Virus record (IMG/VR): IMGVR_UViG_3300028048_000093
Direction: 5' to 3' (one strand)
Origin: a virus
Lineage: Duplodnaviria > Heunggongvirae > Uroviricota > Caudoviricetes > Crassvirales
DNA length: 64,000 nt
Shown: positions 7,865 to 47,646 of the stretch, one piece after another
Position numbering within the stretch: position 1 is the first letter of the stretch
Layout: each line of letters starts with the position of its first letter
Translations under genes and position numbers: made by a program
Notes under the pieces: generated by a model
Databases searched by the model: none
Seen by the model: only the letters and a program-made list of their open reading frames with translations
Told to the model about the DNA's origin: nothing

Positions 7865-8387
7865 ACACTACGAAGGTCTGTATAATAGCTGCATGGCGAT
7901 TAATCTTACCCAATGCCTCTGAAATAGACCTCATTGTTGTACCTGAGTAGTAGGAATCATCCAGTAGTATATAATGTGTAGCCTCAAGGTTGCTCTTGAA
8001 TATCTCAGGACTTTTGCCTTCCCTGATACCACCATTCACCACTATCACATCTTTGAAATTGTTAGCTAACTCCTTAGCAAAGTTTGACATAACATAATGC
8101 CCAAACCTGCCAGTTACTATAACTCCTAGGTCTGAGGAGTTCATTGATGTTTGTGAGCCGAATACCCCGTTGATGGCTATTGGTGAAATCATGTGATAGA
8201 AGTCATAGTTGCATACCCAGTCTATGAAAGTCTTTCCAATGTTTTGGTCAGACCTTATCATCAAATCCAAGGCATTGAAAAACTTCTCCCCACCTTCAGG
8301 GTGCTGCTTGAGGATGTCTATTATTTTCTCATTCAGTGTCATAGAACTTCTTGTACCTTTTGTATGTGTCTCTGATGACCTTCTCAC
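7806..8387 (-). CDS. type I phosphoribosyltransferase-fold protein
   Basis: PRPP-binding motif HYILLDDSYYSGTTM. Small size (about 180-190 aa). Confidence 0.55.
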   Translation of the reverse strand: MRRSSETHTKGTRSSMTLNEKIIDILKQHPEGGEKFFNALDLMIRSDQNIGKTFIDWVCNYDFYHMISPIAINGVFGSQTSMNSSDLGVIVTGRFGHYVMSNFAKELANNFKDVIVVNGGIREGKSPEIFKSNLEATHYILLDDSYYSGTTMRSISEALGKINRHAAIIQTFVVYDGSKDSQEFVKSMYRYYE

Positions 8388-9486: not shown

Positions 9487-11802
9487 TTAATGAACCCAAT
9501 GGTCATAATATCCTCCATCAGCGGGCAATGGCAACTTAGTGCAGAAAAAGCTTCCAGCTCTAGCCATACAATCCTTAACTACCTCAGTCATTTCCTCTGC
9601 CATTTCCTCAGGAACCTCAATATTCCATTCATCATGTGCTGGAATACAAAGTTTCACCTTAAAGAGCAAATTATGCTCTAACAGATACTCCCAAAGAAAT
9701 ATAGATGCAGTCTTGAACATTACTGCTCCAGTACCCTGACAAGGATAATTAATAGACTGCTTTTCTGAGGCTGACTTTCTCTTGAAGAAATACTTTACAG
9801 GATAGACATAAGCATCTGCTAATGAGACATATATCTCTTTGGTCTCCTCCTTGTTAGCCTTCTTTACAGTGTAAGTATATACACCAGGAATAGACTCAAT
9901 AGGAGCACCATCAGCAAACTTCTTACATATCTGAACCCTTACTGCCTTAGGTACTAGGGGGTTTTCTTCTCCCTTATACCCTCTATAGGCATCCCAAAAC
10001 TCAGATGTGAACCTCTTCTTACAGCCCATCAGGATGTCAAAGTCATATATATAGGCTTTATGCTGTGATAGTGGATTAAGCAGGATGACACCATATTGCA
10101 TAACAAGCTTCTTCTGCCTTTCTTGATAGGCCGCAATACCCTTGAAGCCCTTCATATAGTTGTCATATATCTGCTTTGATTCCTTCTCACTCTTACCTGA
10201 GTGCTGCCTGATAGTGTTGGCATCCCCACCATAGTTGATAGGGAACTCTACCTGAGATTTCACATCATTCCTGATACCTGGGAACTTCTTCTTAACCTCC
10301 TCAACAGGACAGGTTACTATAGTAGGATAGGACATCTTTGCTACTAGGCTATGGACATCACCACATCCATGATTGAACAAGTCTAACATAGCCTTGTCAC
10401 CAGTCACATCTGCAATGATTCTTGATTCCTGACCTGAATAGTCACAAGATACCCATTTCATACCTGGGCCTGCAACAAAGCAGGCTCTAGTCTCTGTATC
10501 TCTTGGGAAGTTTTGGAAATTGAGATAGTCAATATTGTTGGATTTGTCCTTGCCTCCTGAGGATAGCCTGCCAGTATCTGCTCCTAACTGATTGAAGTTA
10601 GTGTGGATTCTGTGACTTACCTCATTTATCTGGTCAATGACATTCTGACCATAAGTTGATGTTACCTTTGAAGCTCCTTGATATTGGACATAGAGATAAA
10701 TGAGGGTGGATAGGTTAGACTGAGGTGCAATCACCTTTTCCTCTACACTATCCTTCCACTCACCTGTCTCCTTATCCTTTGTCTTTAGATTAAGACCCAA
10801 GGACTTGAAGAGAGGTATTACTTGCTTTGGACTGTTCCAGTTGATAACACAGGTAGGAGGTTGGAATCCAAGAAACAAATCCCCTTGTAGGTTTTCCTTG
10901 ATATACTTCCTATCCACCTGATGTTCCACCTCAACCTTGTAAGCCTCAGCATAGCCCCTCTTACTGCCCTTGATGTCTGCCTCAGGACACCTCTCACCTA
11001 CCATCTTTCTCCTTGCTTTAGCCAGAGCTTCTTCCTCCAAGCCTTCAATTTGGATATAATGATAGGCATACTTCTGTCCTGTGGCTGAAGCAACTACCCA
11101 ATCACCTAGTGCCTTAAGGAACACTTCCTCAGTAAAGTTGTCAAGTTCCATCTTCCATTTCCACTTAGGAATACTGAGGAGTACACCACAATACTCAGTG
11201 TAAGCAAGCCAAGGAACTGATTTCTGCTCATAGATGTTTGCAGTAAGCAACCCTCTCTTTTCAAGTTCAGGCTGTTGTGCATCCATAATCTTTTCCAGAT
11301 ACTTAACATCATTGGCAGCATACTCTATGACATCTTCACTAAGACCTGCCCACATAATCTTACCTCGAACAGTCTTATCAAGCTCAACTCCCAGATAGTT
11401 CTCACCCAAGGCTTTGAGAGCCATAGAATGAATACCACTTGGGAATCCCAGCCACATCAGCTTCTCAGCAATGAAAGTATCATATACATTCTTCAAGACC
11501 ACCCTTGCATGGAACAAGAACTTCATATCAAACTTGATATTGTGTCCAATGAATAGTCTGTCAGATTCAAGATACTCCTTGAAGAAATTGATGTCAACTG
11601 TTGTCAGGTCAATGACTATTTGAAAGTCAAAGCAACCAAGTTGCAGCATCAAACACTGTTTTGTATATGGGTCAAAACCCATAGTCTCAGTATCAAGACC
11701 AACTTTCTTAAGTTTTTCAAGAAGTGATAATGCTGCAACTGGGCTTATTATCTCAAACTTGTCACTTGGTGGCAGTATTTGAGTAGTTACTACATAAATC
11801 AT
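9487..11802 (-). CDS. polA: DNA polymerase, family A with 3'-5' exonuclease domain
   Basis: Exo motifs LDTETMG, IGHNIKFDMKFL and YAANDVKYL are present. Pol A motifs are DYSGQESR (motif A), LGADTGRLSS plus NFQNFP (O-helix region) and IPAHDE (motif C). Confidence 0.85.
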   Translation of the reverse strand: MIYVVTTQILPPSDKFEIISPVAALSLLEKLKKVGLDTETMGFDPYTKQCLMLQLGCFDFQIVIDLTTVDINFFKEYLESDRLFIGHNIKFDMKFLFHARVVLKNVYDTFIAEKLMWLGFPSGIHSMALKALGENYLGVELDKTVRGKIMWAGLSEDVIEYAANDVKYLEKIMDAQQPELEKRGLLTANIYEQKSVPWLAYTEYCGVLLSIPKWKWKMELDNFTEEVFLKALGDWVVASATGQKYAYHYIQIEGLEEEALAKARRKMVGERCPEADIKGSKRGYAEAYKVEVEHQVDRKYIKENLQGDLFLGFQPPTCVINWNSPKQVIPLFKSLGLNLKTKDKETGEWKDSVEEKVIAPQSNLSTLIYLYVQYQGASKVTSTYGQNVIDQINEVSHRIHTNFNQLGADTGRLSSGGKDKSNNIDYLNFQNFPRDTETRACFVAGPGMKWVSCDYSGQESRIIADVTGDKAMLDLFNHGCGDVHSLVAKMSYPTIVTCPVEEVKKKFPGIRNDVKSQVEFPINYGGDANTIRQHSGKSEKESKQIYDNYMKGFKGIAAYQERQKKLVMQYGVILLNPLSQHKAYIYDFDILMGCKKRFTSEFWDAYRGYKGEENPLVPKAVRVQICKKFADGAPIESIPGVYTYTVKKANKEETKEIYVSLADAYVYPVKYFFKRKSASEKQSINYPCQGTGAVMFKTASIFLWEYLLEHNLLFKVKLCIPAHDEWNIEVPEEMAEEMTEVVKDCMARAGSFFCTKLPLPADGGYYDHWVH

Positions 11803-34782: not shown

Positions 34783-34859
34783 TGGCGAATTAGACAGGAT
34801 TTGAACCTATTACACTTTGTATGACAAACAAATGCTCTATCCAAATGAGCTACAAATTC
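34783..34859 (-). tRNA. tRNA-Asp(GTC), CCA encoded
   Basis: Manual fold: acceptor GAATTTG/CTAATTC, D arm GCTC...GAGC, anticodon loop TTGTCAT, T arm with GGTTCAAATCC. Confidence 0.7.
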
Positions 34860-34866
34860 TTTACCA

Positions 34867-34879
34867 TATTGTAAGTGAC
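34867..34879 (-). repeat. recurring motif GTCACTTACAATA (minus orientation) 7 nt upstream of tRNA-Asp
   Basis: Variants of the same motif also occur at 35181-35191, 35273-35285, 35563-35575, 39745, 39896 and 39927, mostly 7-15 nt 5' of tRNA or tRNA-like starts. Confidence 0.4.
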
Positions 34880-35089
34880 TCTATCTTTTGTTGTTAATAA
34901 TCAATAAAAGCAGCTTCTTATTCTCGGCTAATGCTGCAAAGCCTCAACCCAACATAGGTATGTCAAGTGCTGGGATTTAGCTCTCTTGGTTCCTGAAAAG
35001 GACGGGTAAGCAGCCTTGATATGTAGCTGGCTGCTTGTACAGATTGCGTTGTGGAACTACTAGAGAGTGTAGGATAGTCACTAAGTTGT

Positions 35090-35135
35090 GTCAACATTAA
35101 AAGTGTTGTGCTCTAACCACTGAGCTAATCTGCCG
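35090..35135 (-). pseudogene. tRNA-Lys(TTT)-like 5' fragment (acceptor, D arm and anticodon arm only)
   Basis: Reads CGGCAGATTAGCTCAGTGGTTAGAGCACAACACTTTTAATGTTG. No T arm or 3' acceptor follows within 250 nt. Confidence 0.4.
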
Positions 35136-35139
35136 ATAA

Positions 35140-35167
35140 TGGAGGCGGATATAGGAGTCGAACCTAT
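35140..35167 (-). pseudogene. orphan tRNA 3' fragment (T arm, acceptor 3' strand and CCA)
   Basis: Reads ATAGGTTCGACTCCTATATCCGCCTCCA. No matching 5' half is present upstream. Confidence 0.35.
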
Positions 35168-35198
35168 GCTTGATGTGGTCTTGTAAGTGACTATGTAG

Positions 35199-35323
35199 TG
35201 GGGGAGCCTGGACTCGAACCAGGAATTTCAAAAACCTCAATTTTGCGTGTTTACCTGAATTTTAATGATAGTATTGTATGTGACTAATAGTCACACGAAA
35301 ATTACTAATTTCACTACTCCCCC
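35199..35323 (-). ncRNA. tRNA-like RNA gene (~125 nt) with ~75-nt insertion in place of the anticodon arm
   Basis: Perfect acceptor pairing GGGGGAG/CTCCCCC. T arm CCTGGTTCGAGTCCAGG. Internal 8-bp palindrome TGTGACTA-T-TAGTCACA and a copy of the upstream motif lie inside. Confidence 0.4.
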
Positions 35324-35327
35324 ATAA

Positions 35328-35460
35328 TGGGCGGGGAATGAGAGAATCGAACTCCCATTTCTGGATTGTGTCCCAGAAAAATTGTATAAGATGCTGTTGT
35401 ATGTATCAAATAGGACACGGAGATACACAATACAATCGGCAACCATTGCCAAATTCCCCA
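35328..35460 (-). ncRNA. tRNA-like RNA gene (~133 nt) with extended anticodon-region hairpins, CCA encoded
   Basis: Acceptor TGGGGAA/TTCCCCG. D arm TGGC-AATGGTT-GCCG. T arm GGGAGTTCGATTCTCTC. About 57 extra nt between the D and T arms form hairpins. Confidence 0.4.
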
Positions 35461-35477
35461 TTGAAAGACACTAATAA

Positions 35478-35550
35478 ACTTACATATTGGAATCGAACCA
35501 ATTATACTCTGATTACCAATCGGATGCTCTACCTAATGAGCTAATGTTAA
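35478..35550 (-). tRNA. tRNA-Thr(GGT)
   Basis: Manual fold: D arm GCTC-ATTAGGTA-GAGC, anticodon loop TTGGTAA, T arm TTGGTTCGATTCCAA. The acceptor has one mismatch. Confidence 0.5.
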
Positions 35551-35562
35551 TTTTTACTATAG

Positions 35563-35575
35563 TATTGTAAGTGTC
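35563..35575 (-). repeat. motif copy (GACACTTACAATA) 13 nt upstream of tRNA-Thr
   Basis: Same motif family as 34867-34879. Confidence 0.35.
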
Positions 35576-35633
35576 TTAATTGTGGATGAGTGAGGTATCA
35601 CCCTCACCCACCCTAGAATCTGTAAAAAAGGTC

Positions 35634-37517
35634 TTACAGAGTATTTGCTCTCACAAGCTCATACCTGTTTGACCTGTGGATTGACTGCAAGGGAGTATAG
35701 ACATCGAAGACATCCATATCCTTGAAGTTAGTCAGGAACTGCTCAATTTGTGCAGGATTTGAAGGAATGTACATCAGGTTGTCTATACCTGAGAACTTCT
35801 CTACAGCCCTCTCCATATACCTGTCATCATAGCCATTGGTTACATCCATAGCCACAATGAAAGGCTTGAAGCCTAGGTGTATCTCGCACTGTCTGAGTAA
35901 ATCAGCCACTGAGGACTCAGGGCTGGGCAGATTGTTCCACTCTCCATCTGAAATGATAGTCCATACAGGGAAATCCTTGAGGGCATCCTTCAGCTGAGGG
36001 AAGTCAGTCATAATGACTTTGAGGCTCTTAATGAGAGTAGAAATGTCAGTCCAACCACCACCAAACATACCTCTAAGATAAGAACTGATGTTCTTGTAGT
36101 TATCCATAAAGGATTTGGTGGGGTCAACAAAGGGTTTGTTCACAGACTTTACACCTGAGTTCCTTCTCATAATAGAGTTAGGAGTCTCTGCTGCTTCCCT
36201 ATCAATGTGGCTGAACCATCTACAGCTTCTTCCAAAGAGGCCAACTAGGTTCCTACCATCATCATCGGGGTTCTTGCACAGACATACAGATGCAATGAAG
36301 GATGCAAAGGAGAAGGGCATACCACTCATAGACCCTGAGTCATCAATAATGACGAGGGTATTGTAAGGCAGGTTTACCTTATTCTGAATGAAAGCTTCAA
36401 GTTTGGCACCATCCACTCTACCAGAGATAATCTGCTGATACAACTCCTTGAAGTTTGTTGCACCAACATTAACCTTAGCCTCCTTCTTGACCTTCTGCAA
36501 CTTCACCTTATCCTCCTCTGAAGCCTGACCTTGTCTGACTTTCTCCTCAAGCACTCTCTGCTCTGTCTGCTTCTGCTCTTTGTATGCCTCCCACTTGGCT
36601 ACCCAAGGCTGGAACTTGGCCCACTTAGCTACCTCCTGTGTAGCAGTTACAGACTTTCCATCCATACCTGCTGTCTCACAGTCAGTGTCTATGACCTTAG
36701 AATAAAGAATCCTGTTCTTTACCCTGAACCTAGCCTGAGAAGGCAGCTTGTCAAACCAATCCAAGAACTGACTCTCGTCAAATTCATTGATTTTGCCTGT
36801 GGAGAAGAGTACACTTTCAAGTGAGCCATTGAACTCCTTGCGCCACTCTCTGTAGCCCTTGAAATTCACATAGGTTCCCTTGACCTCATACTCCCAACCC
36901 ATAAGCTTAGATAGTTCAACAAGGAACTTAGCCTTATTCTCCATTACCTGTTTGGTCTGAGGGAGCATCTTCTTGTGGCCTGCTCTCTTGGAGAATCTGG
37001 GTATAGTGAGGAATTTAGCAATCAGCAGCTTGTTGAAGGGGTTCTTACCATTGATGACTGCATATACATACTTTAAGAGTTCCTCTCTGTACCAATCATC
37101 AGCAAAGATGTCATAGACCTTGAGAACCTTAGAACCCTTGGTCTGTACTCTGCTTCTGAATAAGGTATCAAAGCACTGATACTCATTGAACAAACCAGCA
37201 TTGAGGAACTTCACAAACTGTTGCTTGTGATTGGTTCTCAGCCAGTTAAATATGGTATAGAAGCCTTCACGGTTGGCATTACCACCACTGTCCTTCTTAA
37301 CACCACCAAAGATGTTGTGCTGCCTAGCTGTGATGTCACCTACTGAGAACAGAATGGAGAAGAACAGCTCACGATGTTCCTTATTCTCCTTGACCTCATT
37401 CCAGCAGGTATTGAGCATGGACTCAGAGATAGTGCTGCCTACAGCCTGTGTGAGGTTGAGGCAGTTCCTTAATCCGTAAAAGGGATTGTTACTAGTTTGG
37501 TTTAACTTCACTTCCAT
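35634..37517 (-). CDS. von Willebrand factor A (vWA) domain protein, 627 aa
   Basis: MIDAS motif LVIIDDSGSMSG, then GGWTD, then ISDGE. The C-terminal segment KPFIVAMDVTNGYD resembles the Ro60 vWA segment KLIVCGMTSNGF. The N-terminal ~380 aa are uncharacterised. Confidence 0.6.
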   Translation of the reverse strand: MEVKLNQTSNNPFYGLRNCLNLTQAVGSTISESMLNTCWNEVKENKEHRELFFSILFSVGDITARQHNIFGGVKKDSGGNANREGFYTIFNWLRTNHKQQFVKFLNAGLFNEYQCFDTLFRSRVQTKGSKVLKVYDIFADDWYREELLKYVYAVINGKNPFNKLLIAKFLTIPRFSKRAGHKKMLPQTKQVMENKAKFLVELSKLMGWEYEVKGTYVNFKGYREWRKEFNGSLESVLFSTGKINEFDESQFLDWFDKLPSQARFRVKNRILYSKVIDTDCETAGMDGKSVTATQEVAKWAKFQPWVAKWEAYKEQKQTEQRVLEEKVRQGQASEEDKVKLQKVKKEAKVNVGATNFKELYQQIISGRVDGAKLEAFIQNKVNLPYNTLVIIDDSGSMSGMPFSFASFIASVCLCKNPDDDGRNLVGLFGRSCRWFSHIDREAAETPNSIMRRNSGVKSVNKPFVDPTKSFMDNYKNISSYLRGMFGGGWTDISTLIKSLKVIMTDFPQLKDALKDFPVWTIISDGEWNNLPSPESSVADLLRQCEIHLGFKPFIVAMDVTNGYDDRYMERAVEKFSGIDNLMYIPSNPAQIEQFLTNFKDMDVFDVYTPLQSIHRSNRYELVRANTL

Positions 37518-37566
37518 AATGATGCAACGTTAGATAAGTAAAAACTTGTAAGTAACACTAAATGTT

Positions 37567-38010
37567 CTAGAAATCTTCCTCAGCATCCAAGCCAGCAAGC
37601 TGTGCCTCCAGTTCCTTGATTCTGTCCTCAGGAGTCTTGGTAGATTCCTTCAGATTCTTCAACTGTTCTGTGAGTTCAGCCTTCTTTCTCTTGGTCTCCT
37701 CAGCTTCCAGCTTATATCTCTTCCAACCTATGATGAGGTTGACAAGCTCTTTCTGCTTCTTGAGAGACTCCAGCTTTTCCTGAGTGTAGTCTGAAGCTAC
37801 CCACTCATCCTGAGACTCCAGCTTCTCAATCTGCTTTGCAAGACCAAGACGGATGTCATTCAGAGTACCAATGGTGGTAGTGTGCAACAGGTCAACAATA
37901 TTCAAGGGCTGACCCATCTTAGTGGAGATAGTCTCATTTGCAATGAGCATGGCAAATGCCAAAGAGGACATCTTCACATAATGTTCTTTAGTAAAACGTA
38001 CTTTAGCCAT
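37567..38010 (-). CDS. hypothetical coiled-coil protein (147 aa)
   Basis: ORF track entry. Heptad-like K/E-rich C-terminus. Confidence 0.45.
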   Translation of the reverse strand: MAKVRFTKEHYVKMSSLAFAMLIANETISTKMGQPLNIVDLLHTTTIGTLNDIRLGLAKQIEKLESQDEWVASDYTQEKLESLKKQKELVNLIIGWKRYKLEAEETKRKKAELTEQLKNLKESTKTPEDRIKELEAQLAGLDAEEDF

Positions 38011-38205
38011 AATGTATTAATGAATTAAAAGTGAATAATCAAGCGAGGTCAATGTTAATGTATCAGCATACACATTAGGATATATGCCTTTCCCCCATTC
38101 AGGTTATCTGACACACACCCAGTTGTCCATTAGAGCATTGACCATTTTGTGATACTATGAGTACCAAATTTCGGGGATTTCAACATAGTCCATCATTGTC
38201 TCTTA

Positions 38206-38757
38206 TTAGCTTTTTTTTTGCAGTTCGTGATAATCTAAGTCTGGATGACCTGTAATCAGCCATCTGCAAGCTGATGCTACGATGAGGTGTTGAACACCTG
38301 AAGCAAAGACCACACCCAACACTATATCCTGCCATTGTGGGAGACATTCCCAAGCACTGAGATACAGGAAACAAAGTATGAATGTAATCCATGTAGTACT
38401 GCAATAGATACAGTAACCGAGAGGATAAGTAATAAACCTAAGAATAGGATTATTACCTTTAGCCCAAGGTCTGAAGACCTTCATATACAAAGGGAAGAAT
38501 ATCATATCTTCCACTTTGAGGCAGTTCCTGTAGAATATACCTAACAGACCACCAATTAGTCCTACAATGCCGAACTCAAGCATCAGCTGTGTAAACATAG
38601 AATATTGTATTAAAAGTGAATAGTCATAGATATGATGTCTTTCCATCAGCCAGCCTCCTTGTGTTCTCTCGGTACTGAGACATACCAAATTACACCTGTA
38701 CACTCGGTGGTTGCAGTTTCTCAGACAGAATCCTGCAACGTCCCTATACCCAGCCAA
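38206..38757 (-). CDS. integral membrane protein (183 aa)
   Basis: Multiple hydrophobic segments. Confidence 0.4.
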   Translation of the reverse strand: MAGYRDVAGFCLRNCNHRVYRCNLVCLSTERTQGGWLMERHHIYDYSLLIQYSMFTQLMLEFGIVGLIGGLLGIFYRNCLKVEDMIFFPLYMKVFRPWAKGNNPILRFITYPLGYCIYCSTTWITFILCFLYLSAWECLPQWQDIVLGVVFASGVQHLIVASACRWLITGHPDLDYHELQKKS

Positions 38758-38932
38758 TCAGTTGTAACATAAATTTTCTGCAATGAGGTGCATCCCATGT
38801 CACCTGAGAAAAGGATGCCAACCTTACTTGACTTTGTTTGGCAGTCTTTCTGGGATAAAGGATTGAGGTATTCTACTGTAGTCCTCACACACTTTCATGC
38901 TGAACAGATACCCAGTTACTTCTACCTCATAG

Positions 38933-39435
38933 TGGAGCTAGAGGGAGTCGAACCCTCGTCCAAACAGTTCAGCCATAGGAAACTAAATACACGCTTTTGC
39001 CATTACTGGCACTTGGGGCTGACTGGAAGTCAACCAATCCACCACTCCATTTTGAGAAAACGGAGAAAACACTCTCTCACATATTGCATCTGATGTTATC
39101 TCTGCCCCAGTTATTGAGAGTTGTGACAGTCTATCTTCAGGTATAATAGTGGCTTACCTCCTCCGTGCATCAGAGCAAATTAAGCACTGGGACTTCGGAC
39201 TACCAATCTTAGTTTCCCCTCAGATTTAGCTACACACCCTTTCAGATTATCTGTCTCTTGGTGAGTTTCTGTTTCAGGCACTCACCTTGCCTAGCACTTA
39301 CGCAGCAATCCTGAGGACTGTTTTGCTGGCAGGAGTCATTACAACTACCTTAGCATTTATTGGTTTACCATTTCAAGGCATGGATGCCTGCGTGATTTCC
39401 TACCACATTCCTGCTGTCAAAACCGTGATAACCCC
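38933..39435 (-). ncRNA. ssrA: tmRNA (ssrA)-like gene, ~500 nt
   Basis: 3' end GGACGAGGGTTCGACTCCCTCTAGCTCCA closely matches the tmRNA T arm/acceptor (E. coli GGACGCGGGTTCAACTCCCGCCAGCTCCA). 5' end GGGGTTATCACGGTTTTGACAG resembles GGGGCTGATTCTGGATTCGAC and gives a G3-U70 acceptor. A candidate tag ORF GCC AGC AAA ACA GTC CTC AGG ATT GCT GCG TAA (ASKTVLRIAA*) starts about nt 106. Confidence 0.45.
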
Positions 39436-39548
39436 ATTGAGTGACCCTTAGCCACTCATATGCTGACAGGTCTAGAAGATGTAAATGATGGGCCTTGGTA
39501 GGCAGGGAAAGTCCAATCATAAACTCTTCTTGACCCGCTAGTTTTCAA

Positions 39549-39586
39549 AAAACCCTACTCTGTTTCACAACAGTGTAGGGCCAAAC
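39549..39586 (-). terminator. rho-independent terminator
   Basis: Minus-strand CCCTACACTGTTGTGAAACAGAGTAGGG followed by TTTTTTG. Confidence 0.55.
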
Positions 39587-39641
39587 AATAACTAAAAACC
39601 TAAAACTATAAATATTACTACTAACCTAAAACAAATCGGAG

Positions 39642-39714
39642 TACTCCCTGTAGGACTCGAACCTACAACCCACAGATTAGAAATCTGTTGCTCTATCCAT
39701 TGAGCTAAGGGAGC
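39642..39714 (-). tRNA. tRNA-Arg(TCT)
   Basis: Acceptor GCTCCCT/AGGGAGT, anticodon loop TTTCTAA, T arm GTAGGTTCGAGTCCTAC. Confidence 0.7.
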
Positions 39715-39782
39715 ATATACCTCTATATTCACATACTGAGGTATTGTTCTGTTTACACATAAACAGCGTAAGTAGTACATTG

Positions 39783-39856
39783 TACTGCCTAGGAGACTCG
39801 AACTCCTAATAGCCACATCGAAAGTGTGGTGACTTAACCAATTTGTCCAAGGCAGC
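39783..39856 (-). tRNA. tRNA-Glu(TTC)
   Basis: Acceptor GCTGCCT/AGGCAGT, anticodon stem CCACA/TGTGG, loop CTTTCGA, T arm AGGAGTTCGAGTCTCCT. Confidence 0.7.
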
Positions 39857-39970
39857 AAGTGAGTGTGTATAGTGTTTCACACATGGTAATTCATACCATT
39901 ATTGTTCGTGGTACTAGCACGCTACATATTGTTTGCACAAACTCCCACACTCATCAATCACATGGTGATG

Positions 39971-40042
39971 TACCCCCAATAGGAATCGAACCTATATCTA
40001 CGGTTTAGGAAACCGTTGCTCTGTCCGTTGAGCTATGGGGGC
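39971..40042 (-). tRNA. tRNA-Arg(CCT)
   Basis: Acceptor GCCCCCA/TGGGGGT, anticodon stem ACGGT/ACCGT, loop TTCCTAA, T arm ATAGGTTCGATTCCTAT. Confidence 0.7.
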
Positions 40043-44734: not shown

Positions 44735-44806
44735 TGGGTTATAGCGCAATGGTAACGCACAGGATTTTGGTCCCTGATATTCTAGGTTCGACTCCTAGTG
44801 ACCCAA
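44735..44806 (+). tRNA. tRNA-Gln(TTG)
   Basis: Acceptor TGGGTTA/TGACCCA, anticodon loop TTTTGGT, T arm CTAGGTTCGACTCCTAG. Confidence 0.6.
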
Positions 44807-44812
44807 CAAAAT

Positions 44813-44887
44813 GCAGCCATCCCTGCTAACAGGTTAGGCAACTACACTCTCAATGTAGAAATCAGGGTTCGAGTCCCTGTGGCTGTA
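44813..44887 (+). tRNA. tRNA-Glu(CTC) (D arm irregular)
   Basis: Acceptor GCAGCCA/TGGCTGT, anticodon stem CTACA/TGTAG with loop CTCTCAA, T arm CAGGGTTCGAGTCCCTG. The D arm does not fold canonically by eye. Confidence 0.5.
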
Positions 44888-44922
44888 CTAGGAGTTCTTT
44901 GACATACTGACACACTATTATA

Positions 44923-44993
44923 GGATATGTGGTGTAATAGGTAACATACCACCCTGTCACGGTGAAGTTAGGGGTTCGAGTCCCCCATATCCT
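44923..44993 (+). tRNA. tRNA-Asp(GTC)
   Basis: Acceptor GGATATG/CATATCC, anticodon loop CTGTCAC, T arm GGGGTTCGAGTCCCC. Confidence 0.6.
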
Positions 44994-45048
44994 GCAAGAT
45001 ACCACACCTATCTAGTCCACATAGGCACAGCGGTGTAATGTGGCAGTT

Positions 45049-45139
45049 GGAGAGTTAAGCCTAATTGGTAAGGCAGTAGTCCTGAAAACTACTAGTAGTC
45101 GTGAATAGCGGTGTGTGGGTTCAAGTCCCACACTCTCCT
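45049..45139 (+). tRNA. tRNA-Ser(TGA), class II with long variable arm
   Basis: Acceptor GGAGAGT/ACTCTCC, anticodon stem GTAGT/ACTAC, loop CCTGAAA, T arm GTGGGTTCAAGTCCCAC. Confidence 0.6.
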
Positions 45140-45150
45140 CTCTTTATTAT

Positions 45151-45223
45151 ATAGGTGTAGCTCAGTAGGTAGAGTTCTTGCTTTGGGAGCAAGATGTCGC
45201 AGGTTCGAGTCCTGTCACCTATA
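45151..45223 (+). tRNA. tRNA-Pro(TGG)
   Basis: Acceptor ATAGGTG/CACCTAT, anticodon stem CTTGC/GCAAG, loop TTTGGGA, T arm GCAGGTTCGAGTCCTGT. Confidence 0.7.
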
Positions 45224-45228
45224 CTATT

Positions 45229-45314
45229 GGAGGTGAGAAGCCTAGAGGTAAGGTCTTGGTTTGCTAAACCAAAGGTTCAATAAAATGGATGAGTTTCGAT
45301 TACTCCTGCCTCCG
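45229..45314 (+). tRNA. tRNA-Ser(GCT), class II
   Basis: Acceptor GGAGGTG/TGCCTCC, anticodon stem TTGGT/ACCAA, loop TTGCTAA, T loop TTCGATT. Confidence 0.55.
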
Positions 45315-45322
45315 CTTAAATT

Positions 45323-45396
45323 GGGGTTGTAGCTCAGATGGCTAGAGCATCTGCTTTGCAAGCAGAGGGTCGAGGGTTCGAGTCCCTTCTTCTCCA
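45323..45396 (+). tRNA. tRNA-Ala(TGC)
   Basis: 5' half almost identical to canonical tRNA-Ala (GGGGTTGTAGCTCAG...CTGCTTTGCAAGCAG). G3-U70 pair present. Two mismatches in the acceptor. Confidence 0.6.
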
Positions 45397-45456
45397 CACA
45401 CGGATTCTTGTTCATAATGTTAATGGAGCCTAGCTAGAGGGTAAAATCTAGCAATC

Positions 45457-45528
45457 GGGGATATAGCTCAATGGCAGAGCAACTGGCTGTTAACCAGTAG
45501 GTTGTGGGTTCGACTCCCTCTATGCCCG
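45457..45528 (+). tRNA. tRNA-Asn(GTT)
   Basis: Acceptor GGGGATA/TATGCCC, anticodon stem ACTGG/CCAGT, loop CTGTTAA, T loop TTCGACT. Confidence 0.6.
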
Positions 45529-45688
45529 CAAGGTTGTGATGCAAGCACTCCGAGGTCAGCATGACTTGCAAATGACTGACTGCCTCTACTCTGAAAGACT
45601 CCTGAGTGCAATAAGGGAGTGTAATCAATGAGAAGGGATGACGAAAGCAGGACACAGGGATTTCACTGCCCACAGAGCCTGCTTACCT

Positions 45689-45760
45689 TGGTCTTTAGTG
45701 GAATGGTAACACGTCAGATTCTGGCTCTGAAGATTGGGAGTTCGACCCTCTCAAGACCAA
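45689..45760 (+). tRNA. tRNA-Gln(CTG)
   Basis: Acceptor TGGTCTT/AAGACCA, anticodon stem TCAGA/TCTGA, loop TTCTGGC, T arm GGGAGTTCGACCCTCTC. Confidence 0.6.
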
Positions 45761-45765
45761 CATAC

Positions 45766-45842
45766 AGGGGCATAGTTTTAATGGTAAAACACTGGTCTCC
45801 AAAACCAGATTTGGGGGTTCGATTCCTTCTGTCTCTGCCCTA
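45766..45842 (+). tRNA. tRNA-Trp(CCA)-like with aberrant T-arm/acceptor 3' region
   Basis: 5' two-thirds align with E. coli tRNA-Trp (AGGGGCATAGTT...CTGGTCTCCAAAACCAG). The 3' region carries about 6 extra nt (CCTTCTGTCTCTGCCCT). Possibly a pseudogene or a non-canonical T arm. Confidence 0.45.
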
Positions 45843-45861
45843 ACTTTTAACAAGTTTACAT

Positions 45862-46038
45862 TATGATTACAGGTTTGATTATTGCAGGTGTTTGGCTGGC
45901 AGGTAGTGTTGCAGCTTGGCATCTAGGTGTTAAGGATTGGGATAATCCTAAGTGGGAGAATGTTGCATTGAGCCTTGCATGGCCTTGCATCCTACCTTTG
46001 TGGTGCATCCATAGGATTCACAATGGTCATTGGTAATG
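45862..46038 (+). CDS. small membrane protein (58 aa) embedded in tRNA array
   Basis: Manual translation gives MITGLIIAGVWLAGSVAAWHLGVKDWDNPKWENVALSLAWPCILPLWCIHRIHNGHW. Below the ORF-track cutoff. Confidence 0.3.
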
Positions 46039-46045
46039 ACCATAT

Positions 46046-46119
46046 TGGGATATAGCTTAGAAGGTTAAAGCGTTTGACTGATAATCAAGAGACCACAGGT
46101 TCAAGTCCTGTTATCCCAA
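46046..46119 (+). tRNA. tRNA-Ile(GAT)
   Basis: Acceptor TGGGATA/TATCCCA, anticodon stem TTTGA/TCAAG, loop CTGATAA, T arm ACAGGTTCAAGTCCTGT. Confidence 0.6.
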
Positions 46120-46121
46120 CT

Positions 46122-46193
46122 GTACTAGTAGCTTAATGGTAAAGCCCCTGATTGTGAGTCAGGTGTATGTGAGTTCGAGCCTCACCTAGCACC
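46122..46193 (+). tRNA. tRNA-His(GTG)
   Basis: Anticodon stem CCTGA/TCAGG, loop TTGTGAG, T arm GTGAGTTCGAGCCTCAC. Acceptor has one mismatch. Confidence 0.6.
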
Positions 46194-46270
46194 CTTCTCG
46201 GTTGTCGTGAGACAAGTCCTTTCACACGCGGTTTTTCGTTTACTTTTTTCATGTTTTCGTTTTGTTTTTC

Positions 46271-46300
46271 CTCCTGCCTGTGAAGGTCGGAGGTTTTTGT
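46271..46300 (+). terminator. rho-independent terminator inside tRNA array
   Basis: CCTCCTGCC ... GGTCGGAGG followed by TTTTTGTT. Confidence 0.45.
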
Positions 46301-46370
46301 TCTCTTAGCTCAGCGGTAGAGCAATACACTTTTAATGTATGGGTCCAGGGTTCGAGTCTCTGAGGGAACA
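46299..46370 (+). tRNA. tRNA-Lys(TTT)
   Basis: Acceptor GTTCTCT/AGGGAAC, D arm GCTC-AGCGGTA-GAGC, anticodon loop CTTTTAA, T arm CAGGGTTCGAGTCTCTG. Confidence 0.7.
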
Positions 46371-46398
46371 CACTTTTAGTTATTAACCCTTAAAAGTG
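46369..46398 (+). other. perfect hairpin immediately after tRNA-Lys
   Basis: ACACTTTTAG ... CTTAAAAGTGT forms an 11-bp stem. Confidence 0.4.
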
Positions 46399-46547
46399 TA
46401 TTGAATATGAAAAAGATTAAGAACATTTGCAAGAGGGTACTGAAGGCTTATTGTAAGGGAGCTGTTATGATGTACCCAACTGGTACTATTCCAGTAAGGA
46501 TTGACCTATAGGAGGTCAACCCTTTCACTTGAGGGTAATAATTACAT

Positions 46548-46629
46548 TGGAGTATAGATAGCTGGAAAAATCCGCAGACTGTAAATCTGTCGTCTTTTGA
46601 CTGTGGGGGTTCGAGTCCCTCTGCTCCAA
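46548..46629 (+). tRNA. tRNA-Tyr(GTA), long variable arm
   Basis: Acceptor TGGAGTA/TGCTCCA, anticodon loop CTGTAAA, T arm GGGGGTTCGAGTCCCTC. Confidence 0.55.
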
Positions 46630-46638
46630 CTAATATAA

Positions 46639-46713
46639 TGGACACTTGGCAGACTTGGTGTATGCGCTGGACTGAAAATCCAGAGAACGAGGTTCAACTC
46701 CTTGAGTGCCCAC
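46639..46713 (+). tRNA. tRNA-Phe(GAA)
   Basis: Anticodon stem CTGGA/TCCAG, loop CTGAAAA, T arm CGAGGTTCAACTCCTTG. Acceptor has one mismatch. Confidence 0.55.
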
Positions 46714-46867
46714 ACTATGTATTGCAGAATCAAGAATCAAGAATGTCCTCATGCAGGAGAATTGAAGATGAAGGGCTGTGAGGAAATAGGTGAGAAACCA
46801 GGTGTATATGCTTACACTATATGCTATAAAGAAGGTGGCAGGTTGGCTTGTACCCTAGGTATTTAGT

Positions 46868-46948
46868 GGGAAGATGGTGGAATGGTAGACACGCTAGTCT
46901 TAGGAACTAGTGCAGAAATGTGTAAGGGTTCGAGTCCCTTTCTTCCTA
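46868..46948 (+). tRNA. tRNA-Leu(TAG), class II
   Basis: Acceptor GGGAAGA/TCTTCCT, anticodon stem CTAGT/ACTAG, loop CTTAGGA, 13-nt variable arm, T arm AAGGGTTCGAGTCCCTT. Confidence 0.6.
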
Positions 46949-46989
46949 CTTTAGTTAAACAATGTTAAGGTATTGCACTTTTTGACCAA

Positions 46990-47030
46990 AACATTTGGTA
47001 GTTTCAAATAAAATGCTTACCTTTGCAGCA
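46990..47030 (+). promoter_or_regulatory. Bacteroidota-type promoter
   Basis: TTTG at 46994-46997 and TAccTTTG at 47018-47025, spacing 20 nt. Upstream of ORF 47045 and further tRNAs. Confidence 0.6.
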
Positions 47031-47044
47031 TCAAATTAATAATT

Positions 47045-47251
47045 ATGGCAGAGACAAGGAAATTAACAGAGGATGAACTCAGGTGGAGAGCAGAAGAAGA
47101 TGCAAGAACACTTGAGAGATACCAAGAGATTATCAATGATAAGGCAAGGCTTGACAGAGCCTTGAAGGTAGCTGAGAAGCAAGTTGATAATCTACAGGAG
47201 AGGGCTAAGGCACTGAGCAAGTCCATCACTGGTATCAAGAAGAAGAAATAA
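47045..47251 (+). CDS. hypothetical coiled-coil protein (68 aa)
   Basis: ORF track entry. Promoter immediately upstream. Confidence 0.45.
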   Translation: MAETRKLTEDELRWRAEEDARTLERYQEIINDKARLDRALKVAEKQVDNLQERAKALSKSITGIKKKK

Positions 47252-47252
47252 G

Positions 47253-47324
47253 CCTCTTTAGCTCAGTTGATAGAGCAACTGATTTGTACTCAGTGGGTCG
47301 AGGGTTTGAATCCTTCAAGAGGCT
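47253..47324 (+). tRNA. tRNA-Thr(TGT)
   Basis: Perfect acceptor GCCTCTT/AAGAGGC. D arm GCTC-AGTTGATA-GAGC. Anticodon loop TTTGTAC. T arm GAGGGTTTGAATCCTTC. Confidence 0.7.
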
Positions 47325-47480
47325 CTCTAACGAAGAGGATAATACTAGAATAAGACTCAACGTAACTTACAGGCTGTTGCCCTTAACACCAGTTTCTATA
47401 GAGGGGTACAACATAAGATTAGCCCTGTCAGGTGTCGTATTACCTGCCCTAGTTGTCGGGGATGAGCAATGACAACAAAT

Positions 47481-47552
47481 GTAGGTATAGCACAATGGTT
47501 AGTGTGCCAGACCACCACTCTGGATATGAGAGTTCGATTCTCTTTACCTACT
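47481..47552 (+). tRNA. tRNA with non-canonical anticodon loop CCACCAC (C33; anticodon ACC?)
   Basis: Perfect acceptor GTAGGTA/TACCTAC and anticodon stem CCAGA/TCTGG. T arm GAGAGTTCGATTCTCTT. The loop lacks the universal U33. Confidence 0.5.
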
Positions 47553-47559
47553 CAACATC

Positions 47560-47632
47560 GCGGTATAGACTGGAGGAGGTTCCAGCTCAGTCTCATAAGC
47601 TGAATAACGTGGGTTCGAGTCCCACTACCGCA
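47560..47632 (+). tRNA. tRNA-Met/Ile2-type (CAT)
   Basis: Anticodon stem TCAGT/GCTGA, loop CTCATAA, T arm GTGGGTTCGAGTCCCAC. Confidence 0.6.
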
Positions 47633-47646
47633 ACTAAATTTTAGGA

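Follow-up and report, generated by a model that had tools for sequence, protein, structure and literature searches.

Does a virus of the Crassvirales carry a transfer-messenger RNA (tmRNA) gene of its own, or only a remnant of a bacterial one? The question is raised by a stretch of 64,000 nucleotides (nt), IMG/VR virus record IMGVR_UViG_3300028048_000093, referred to here at its full length as the window. A preliminary description, made from the letters alone, had proposed that it holds a complete, phage-borne tmRNA with its own tag peptide. We found that positions 38930–39435 are a complete, standard one-piece tmRNA (ssrA) gene. From its structure, tag frame, setting and relatives, we consider it likely to be the functional tmRNA of a crAss-like (Steigviridae-like) phage of Bacteroidales, located in a tRNA-rich region.

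A complete one-piece tmRNA gene

On the minus strand, the Rfam model for tmRNA, RF00023, aligns along its whole length (1–374 of 374) without truncation and scores 62.2 bits against a gathering score of 47 (E-values 6.5 × 10−22 in the search of the whole window and 9.6 × 10−24 in a local search). The covariance model thus spans the entire gene and not merely its 3′ ~40 nt, which upholds the proposal of a complete tmRNA, and the two proposed ends, G1 (39435) and the discriminator A (38933), proved exact (Table 1). The sequences quoted in that proposal are the reverse complement of the plus strand, which places the gene on the minus strand. On the 3′ side of the discriminator the gene reads CUA, so that CCA is not encoded. 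Open reading frames (ORFs) overlapping the gene code for 49–101 amino acids and have no Pfam or PHROG match, in line with the earlier remark that the region holds no credible ORF. Two variant forms were tried and rejected. The model of permuted two-piece tmRNAs (RF04321) reaches 15.3 bits against a gathering score of 47, and the gene order is the standard one; an intron-containing form is incompatible with a contiguous T loop (UUCGACU) in a window that has no Intron_gpI match.

Folded alone, the RNA adopts a minimum free energy structure (dG −160.7 kcal/mol, z −2.66) with the acceptor stem P1, the T arm and the long helix P2 that closes the central domain. The acceptor with G3-U70 named in the preliminary description is paired in all seven positions. 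P1 likewise forms seven of seven pairs in all 14 family members examined (relatives are described below; L numbers denote sequences retrieved for comparison), with G3-U70 invariant and positions 4–7 covarying, and the discriminator A and tRNA-Ala-like acceptor are common to the window gene and its 14 homologues. P1 pairing was verified directly because RNAalifold cannot see this stem when MAFFT staggers the 5′ ends. For 12 'mini' sequences (5′ part joined to 3′ part) in an unfitted MAFFT alignment, RNAalifold recovered both P2 and the T arm in a prediction of 36 pairs, 18 of which show compensatory changes. P2 has one architecture in 14 relatives, composed of a closing CAYGC/GCRUG, a 5–6-nt bulge and an extended helix, in differing sequences.

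The two ends of the gene resemble those of bacterial tmRNAs. The last 29 nt are identical in a tmRNA gene of a Bacteroidaceae metagenome-assembled genome (MAG; L199), and a 3′-end pattern with three degenerate positions has matches in at least 120 genomes, most of which are Bacteroidota. CCA is encoded by 10 of the ~120 sampled tmRNA genes having the same 3′ end (mostly Bacteroidota). At its 5′ end the gene is similar to the Bacteroides cellulosilyticus tmRNA, and a search for the exact 5′-end pattern gave no match in IMG/VR. As a separate observation, another Bacteroidaceae MAG (L209) holds two exact copies of the 29-nt 3′ end (250–278 and 2418–2446), 2.1 kb apart, which may be an attachment-site duplication left by an element integrated in ssrA.

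Table 1 Positions in the window of the tmRNA gene, its parts and its upstream flank
Feature	Position	Strand	Basis or remark
tRNA-Arg(tct)	39641–39714	minus-strand cluster	upstream of the terminator-like hairpin and the tmRNA
Intrinsic-terminator-like hairpin and U6	39545–39582	−	dG −17.5 kcal/mol, z −3.5; between tRNA-Arg(tct) and tmRNA
tmRNA (ssrA), complete, one-piece	38930–39435	−	506 nt; full-length match to RF00023
Predicted mature RNA	39435 (G1) to 38933 (discriminator A503)	−	CCA added afterwards
Acceptor stem, 5′ strand GGGGUUA	39429–39435	−	7/7 pairs with UAGCUCC
D-loop-like GGUUUUGAC, then P2 5′ strand	39390–39424	−	duplex prediction in 14 relatives; RNAalifold
Pseudoknot 1, GGCA-UCCA-UGCC-UUGAAA-UGG	39368–39388	−	covariation
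Resume-codon context AAUAAAU, U-A-A at −5 to −3	39355–39361	−	matches Rfam consensus AAUAAuU|GCa
Tag frame: GCU resume codon, 18 codons = AKVVVMTPASKTVLRIAA, UAA stop at 39298–39300	39298–39354	−	RF00023 alignment, relatives, ARAGORN
Pseudoknot 2, AGGCA-A-GGUGAG-UGCCU-GAAACAGAAA-CUCACC	39260–39292	−	both stems covary
Window-specific ~22-nt insertion, an imperfect tandem duplicate of the first part of the next module	39233–39254	−	absent from L004 and L003
Module D, pseudoknot-like, AUCU..GGGA..AGAU..UCCC	39189–39225	−	S1 and S2 covary
Module E (tentative), GUGC..CUCUG..GCAC-GGAG	39161–39187	−	sequence kept in L004, L077 and L006
Hairpin module F, stem ACUCUC/GAGAGU around CAAUAACUGGGGCA...AUGCAAUAUGUGA	39071–39121	−	stem covaries
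Terminal module, PK4-like: hairpin G1, UGGUGGA, hairpin G2, small hairpin G3	38998–39065	−	G1 and G2 covary
P2 3′ strand	38963–38994	−	duplex prediction; RNAalifold
T arm GAGGG-UUCGACU-CCCUC, acceptor 3′ strand UAGCUCC, discriminator A	38933–38957	−	RF00023 alignment, direct pairing

The central domain is expanded. A typical tmRNA has one pseudoknot before the tag and usually three after it, four in total (PMC11915505); here pseudoknot 2 (PK2) is followed by at least four structured modules (D, E, F and G) instead of two pseudoknots. Most of these elements are supported by covariation. The hairpin GGCAUCCAUGCC of the preliminary description is indeed part of pseudoknot 1 (PK1), whose stems covary in L004 and L257: the first stem is GGCA/UGCC in the window and GGUA/UACC in L257, and the second is CCA/UGG in the window, GUCA/UGGC in L004 and GUUG/CAGC in L257. 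Both PK2 stems covary strongly around a conserved GAAACAGAAA loop, with pairings among relatives such as GGUGAG/CUCACC, GCCCAU/GUGGGC, GCACUU/AGGUGC and UCACCU/AGGUGA. In module D, AUCU/AGAU alternates with GUCU/AGAC in the first stem, and GGGA/UCCC with AGGA/UCCU and GUGGA/UCCAC in the second; the stem of module F reads CCUUCC/GGAAGG in L004, CUCCCC/GGGGAG in L003 and UUCUAC/GUAGAA in L019 and L094. For D and G, a pseudoknot topology is deduced from short helices only. Between the terminal hairpins, UGGUGGA is invariant in all relatives, and RNAalifold pairs its UGG with the CCA of the G2 loop. We also observed that this motif (window 39038–39044, minus strand; present in all family members) is exactly complementary to UCCACCA, the mature 3′ end.

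Resume codon and tag peptide

The tag frame opens at a GCU codon, RNA position 82 (window 39354–39352), where RF00023 aligns its consensus AAUAAuU|GCa to AAUAAAU|GCU. The U-A-A at −5 to −3 corresponds in position to U85-A86 before the resume codon of Escherichia coli tmRNA. Contexts of the AAUAAAU type also precede the resume codons of relatives, and the tag of the window gene ends in IAA, followed by UAA.

The preliminary description had read a shorter tag, ASKTVLRIAA, from a GCC codon at RNA position 106. That frame, GCC...GCG UAA, does exist (39298–39330) and supplies the last ten codons of the 18-codon frame, but its start was misplaced, the resume codon lying eight codons upstream in the same frame. 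A genuine tmRNA that resumes at GCC (window 39330) and encodes only the ten-residue tag is very improbable. GCC is an alanine codon in frame, and ten residues is the modal tag length (PMC11915505). Against this, RF00023 places the resume codon at GCU, and the U-A-A signal stands before GCU whereas ACUCCU stands before GCC. The eight upstream codons also encode a peptide, AKVVVMTP, that recurs in L004, L003 and L257 and, in part, in L069, L006 and L015. Finally, ARAGORN chose GCU both in L257, where it calls the corresponding frame natively, and in the window gene shortened to ≤415 nt, where it returns the exact 18-residue tag.

Homologous tags were found in L004 and L003 (AKVVVMTPASSTVIRLAA), L257 (AKVVVMTPASSIVRIAA) and L069 (ARVINMTPAYQAAA), and those of L006, L015 and L077 read AEVD[Y/E]TPVRMAA. 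Over the last eight codons the window and L004 differ at eight nucleotides, with three codons changed synonymously and three changing the residue; relative to the window, L257 has a 3-nt deletion and its frame stays open. As the preliminary description had noted, the window tag is unlike the GENNYALAA type of the hosts, differing in both length and composition. A second class of tags in the phage family (GNTYRIAA, GNTYRAAA and DNTYRVAA) is closer to GENNYALAA, a resemblance that fits descent from a Bacteroidota tmRNA. Arginine stands at −4 in most tags of the phage lineage (RIAA, RLAA, RMAA, RVAA and RAAA) and is absent from that position in the sampled host tags.

Phage setting, relatives and annotation

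The tmRNA is carried by a phage, as proposed. Window genes matching PHROG or Pfam include those for the large terminase subunit (TerL), portal, family-A DNA polymerase and NrdD, and they lie on both sides of it. TerL has ~70% protein identity to the Bacteroides phages crAss001, PhiCrAssBcn and Kehishuvirus (Steigviridae). When 20 kb of the window was compared with GenBank phages by megablast, only tRNA-sized matches came back, indicating that no close relative has been sequenced. The gene sits in a minus-strand tRNA cluster, and ARAGORN counts 23 tRNAs in the window. These tRNAs, among which no suppressor anticodons were seen, form two opposed clusters, 34783–40042 on the minus strand and 44735–47634 on the plus strand; gene orientation is minus up to ~42 kb and plus beyond, and the GC skew switches there as well.

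Related IMG/VR contigs were retrieved through a neighbouring ORF of 627 amino acids and the 3′-end pattern. RF00023 matched four of them at full length: L004 (488 nt, 69.5 bits), L006 (73.1 bits), L007 (76.5 bits) and L015 (85.1 bits). A pattern running from TGGTGGA to the T arm was too general, collecting more than 119 tmRNAs of unrelated viral contigs, and the family was therefore picked with a family hidden Markov model (HMM; nhmmer) of the full-length sequences, which added L019, L078, L065, L038, L032, L077, L021, L127, L069 and L094. With a tag-based pattern we recovered, from metagenomes, a form of 306 nt (L257 and L258). In GenBank, four genomes hold family members: cr106_1, cr128_1, Kehishuvirus tikkala and MT835492, the last in an unannotated record. 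Wherever the flanks could be seen, cr106_1 included, the tmRNA follows a tRNA-Arg gene. Across the family the gene measures 303–506 nt, depending on which modules are present, and the window copy is the longest (303–488 nt in 16 relatives).

The family HMM scored 217–375 bits on the phage relatives and 35–42 bits on sampled bacterial tmRNA genes (mostly Bacteroidota), where it matched mostly the last ~70 nt. Global pairwise identity fails to separate the two groups (62–80% for phage relatives and 64–66% for host tmRNAs, in each case relative to the shorter sequence), and HMM bits were used instead. Host-like 5′ and 3′ ends together with low HMM scores elsewhere indicate a host-like tRNA-like domain joined to a remainder that forms a separate phage lineage. 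This lineage, found in Steigviridae-type crAss-like phages, combines host-like tRNA domains with its own tags and a variable number of modules.

Several retrieved genes were unusual in ways of their own. L016 (255–511) still has GGGGCUA at its 5′ end, the terminal module, PK2 and the exact 3′ end, with neither the 5′ strand of P2 nor PK1 nor a tag frame, making it either a decayed copy or a form without a tag. Kehishuvirus tikkala (L254, OQ198717, 1501–1825), cultured on B. cellulosilyticus, has a homologue with the tag DNTYRVAA, apparent damage to the T arm and to the 3′ strand of the acceptor (...GACAAGGGUUCGAGUCCAACCAUCCCCA), and no G3-U70. It is called by neither Rfam nor ARAGORN, and in the record it is unannotated and overlaid by two 'hypothetical protein' coding sequences. 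In L003:2073–2794 (the same contig as L259/L260) and in cr128_1 (L256, NC_055885, 1934–2810), a group I intron splits the T loop between GGGUU and CGAnUCCC (subsite 3), with Intron_gpI scores of 99.9 and 86.1 bits, respectively. Intron subsite 3 has been reported only from Bacteroidia (PMC11915505). On the strand opposite to the tmRNA, which is unannotated, the cr128_1 intron holds an annotated endonuclease coding sequence.

Five other sequences yielded matches to the permuted model (49.6–58.3 bits; gathering score 47), namely the crAss-like Suoliviridae phages cr10_1 (L001, 2947–3332) and cr125_1 (L002, 2943–3392) and the IMG/VR contigs L013, L014 and L017, of which the last three carry the exact 29-nt 3′ end of the window gene. 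ARAGORN calls cr10_1 and cr125_1 permuted, with the tags GNNFVTDYTQLAVA and GNFYVTDYTRIAA, respectively. Just upstream of these two genes lie matches to the Hatchet ribozyme (101 and 87 bits) and RAGATH-9 (97 and 154 bits), at L001:651–777 and 1630–1808 and at L002:1429–1557 and 2788–2956. Related phage contigs also contain Rfam tRNA matches of 109–142 nt, far above the length of ordinary tRNAs, that may be intron-containing tRNA genes (L004:10115–10233, 10683–10791 and 10855–10996; L006:7634–7769 and 8190–8308; L007:11093–11214; L016:3219–3346). Among the viral contigs L018–L133, the fetched IMG/VR stretches gave ~90 ARAGORN tmRNAs, either phage-encoded or in the host flanks of prophages, with a recurrent family whose tags are long and acidic (for example, DEMSTMTFEDLMSFVGADYALAA and AEELSSFTFEDAMSFVGADYAVAA).

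ARAGORN called no tmRNA on the window or on the sub-region. Deletion of 22 nt (RNA 181–202) was sufficient for it to call the gene with the correct ends, and the addition of CCA had no effect, so it is the length of the gene, and not the lack of some feature, that makes the program fail. L004, L069, L078, L077 and the intron-containing relatives were missed as well. ARAGORN is the tmRNA finder of Pharokka-style phage pipelines (PMC12291355) and of the huge-phage study (PMC7162821). These misses, together with the unannotated GenBank copies, imply that counts of phage tmRNAs are underestimated.

Predicted function and comparison with known tmRNAs

If the gene works as its features suggest, it would be expressed during infection, its 5′ end trimmed by RNase P and its 3′ end by host enzymes, and CCA then added. 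The host alanyl-tRNA synthetase would charge it with alanine through G3-U70, and host SmpB and EF-Tu would deliver it to ribosomes stalled on truncated mRNAs. Translation would resume at GCU (window 39354), append (A)AKVVVMTPASKTVLRIAA and end at UAA; for an IDD-ended variant of the tag read from GCU, the expected junctions would be ...AAKVVVMTPASKTVLRIDD. The hydrophobic ...IAA resembles the ...LAA degron of GENNYALAA, and host proteases would probably degrade the tagged chains. The phage copy may in this way keep or raise the capacity for ribosome rescue in infection, much as phage tRNAs supplement those of the host.

Several observations weigh against a functional tmRNA. A Pfam search of the 65 ORFs of the window found no SmpB (PF01668), and the phage tmRNA probably relies on host factors. 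The upstream minus-strand terminator of the preliminary description is a real hairpin followed by U6, about 110 nt from the gene; a simple sigma-70 and terminator scan was uninformative and left this hairpin unlisted. No convincing promoter was found upstream of the tmRNA by the sigma-70 scan or by a search for the Bacteroides-type TAnnTTTG, and upstream conservation among the window, L004 and L003 comes down to a single similar block of ~24 nt, CCCATCATTTACATCTTCTAGACC. Module E shows no covariation among relatives, one of which breaks a pair. The lineage-specific insertions, the 22-nt duplication among them, could mark relaxed constraint, the distribution among related phages is patchy, and two copies (L016 and Kehishuvirus tikkala) look decayed.

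The last of these points would be expected if the window gene were a decaying or non-functional copy of a tmRNA once acquired by the phage lineage, recognisable but no longer used. Its length, exceeding that of all 16 relatives compared, its duplication, the absence of a tmRNA from several related phages and the damaged relatives are all in keeping with this account. We nevertheless regard it as quite unlikely, given that every defining element is intact, from P1 with its seven pairs and G3-U70 through the T arm and P2 to an open tag frame and its stop. The insertions are confined to the stretch between pseudoknot 2 and the terminal module, a region that tolerates replacement in E. coli tmRNA. 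Moreover, the window and L004 are ~80% identical overall, yet every helix has been kept through compensatory changes and the tag frame has been kept with them.

A second alternative grants activity to the RNA but assigns it another role, as a competitor or re-router of host trans-translation, whose distinct tag would alter the fate of the chains or which would itself titrate SmpB. The length and composition of the tag and the arginine at −4 could be taken in this sense, and mycobacteriophage DS6A offers a precedent, its tag-less tmRNA-like RNA inhibiting the endogenous tmRNA (PMC11915505). However, the phage tag ends in xAA just as host tags do, a feature that points to the usual route of degradation, and such a role appears improbable. 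That the locus is a piece of host ssrA of the attachment-site (attP-like) kind, or host DNA attached to the phage by an assembly error, is extremely improbable: its 29-nt 3′ end is identical to that of a Bacteroidaceae tmRNA and tmRNA genes are common integration sites (PMC11915505), but the gene is full-length and matched far beyond its 3′ 40 nt, is unlike sampled bacterial tmRNA genes (mostly Bacteroidota) outside the tRNA-like domain, has syntenic homologues in independent phage contigs, lies in a tRNA cluster with phage genes on both sides, which argues against a prophage flank as well, and is accompanied by no integrase family among the 25 listed of the 29 Pfam families matched by window ORFs.

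A functional phage tmRNA that supports rescue thus remains our preferred reading. A bolder extension of it, which we think unlikely but state for its consequences, is that crAss-like phages keep a fast-evolving tmRNA lineage whose tags and expanded pseudoknot region have been selected to change the outcome of rescue in infection. Tags with a long hydrophobic N-terminal part, arginine at −4 and an xAA end would then give rescued chains a fate other than that of chains tagged by the host; alternatively, the RNA might out-compete host tmRNA for SmpB, or counter host defences that cleave mRNA or tRNA and stall ribosomes. The phage tmRNA would in that case be an infection-specific tool, not a spare part. 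Cultured Bacteroides relatives might serve to test the role of the phage tmRNA; the one found, Kehishuvirus tikkala, has the damaged copy.

How does the window gene compare with known tmRNAs? Phage tmRNAs as such are already known. They are often annotated; in the searchable literature we found no functional study of them and no paper on the tmRNAs of crAss-like phages. Those of huge phages, mycobacteriophages and RefSeq viruses also adjoin tRNA arrays, in other lineages and hosts (PMC7162821; PMC11915505); the tmRNA database takes in RefSeq viruses and a mycobacteriophage form (PMC11915505), and IMG/VR holds many further examples. Some huge phages encode SmpB besides tmRNA (PMC7162821), whereas none was found among the ORFs of this window. 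The DS6A form is without a tag frame and the window gene has one. In L003/L259 and cr128_1, which are the closest relatives and contain the intron, the gene is interrupted after the UU of the T loop, which is uninterrupted in the window.

The tmRNAs of Bacteroidota hosts (B. cellulosilyticus, Segatella copri and L199) have a near-identical tRNA-like domain and the same overall architecture, and likewise show G3-U70, a discriminator A, a CCA that is usually not encoded and a tag ending in xAA. They differ in their nine-residue tags of the GENNYALAA type, in their length (~395 nt) and in being barely recognised by the family HMM (35–42 bits) outside the 3′ ~70 nt.

The closest known counterpart is that of cr106_1 (Mahstovirus faecalis, Steigviridae; NC_055871, KNV29_gs001), found by blastn with the phage relatives of the window as query. 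It belongs to the same lineage, is one-piece and is annotated as SsrA in RefSeq, being within the reach of ARAGORN. It shares with the window gene PK2 with the GAAACAGAAA loop, UGGUGGA, the T arm and the position after tRNA-Arg, and scores 74.3 bits with RF00023. With such a relative on record, the novelty of the locus is lower than the preliminary description implied. The cr106_1 gene, however, is 305 nt long against 506 nt in the window, is without modules D, E and F, and encodes the eight-residue tag DNTYRVAA instead of the 18-residue AKVVVMTPASKTVLRIAA. The window copy stands out for its length, its additional modules and its tag of 18 residues.

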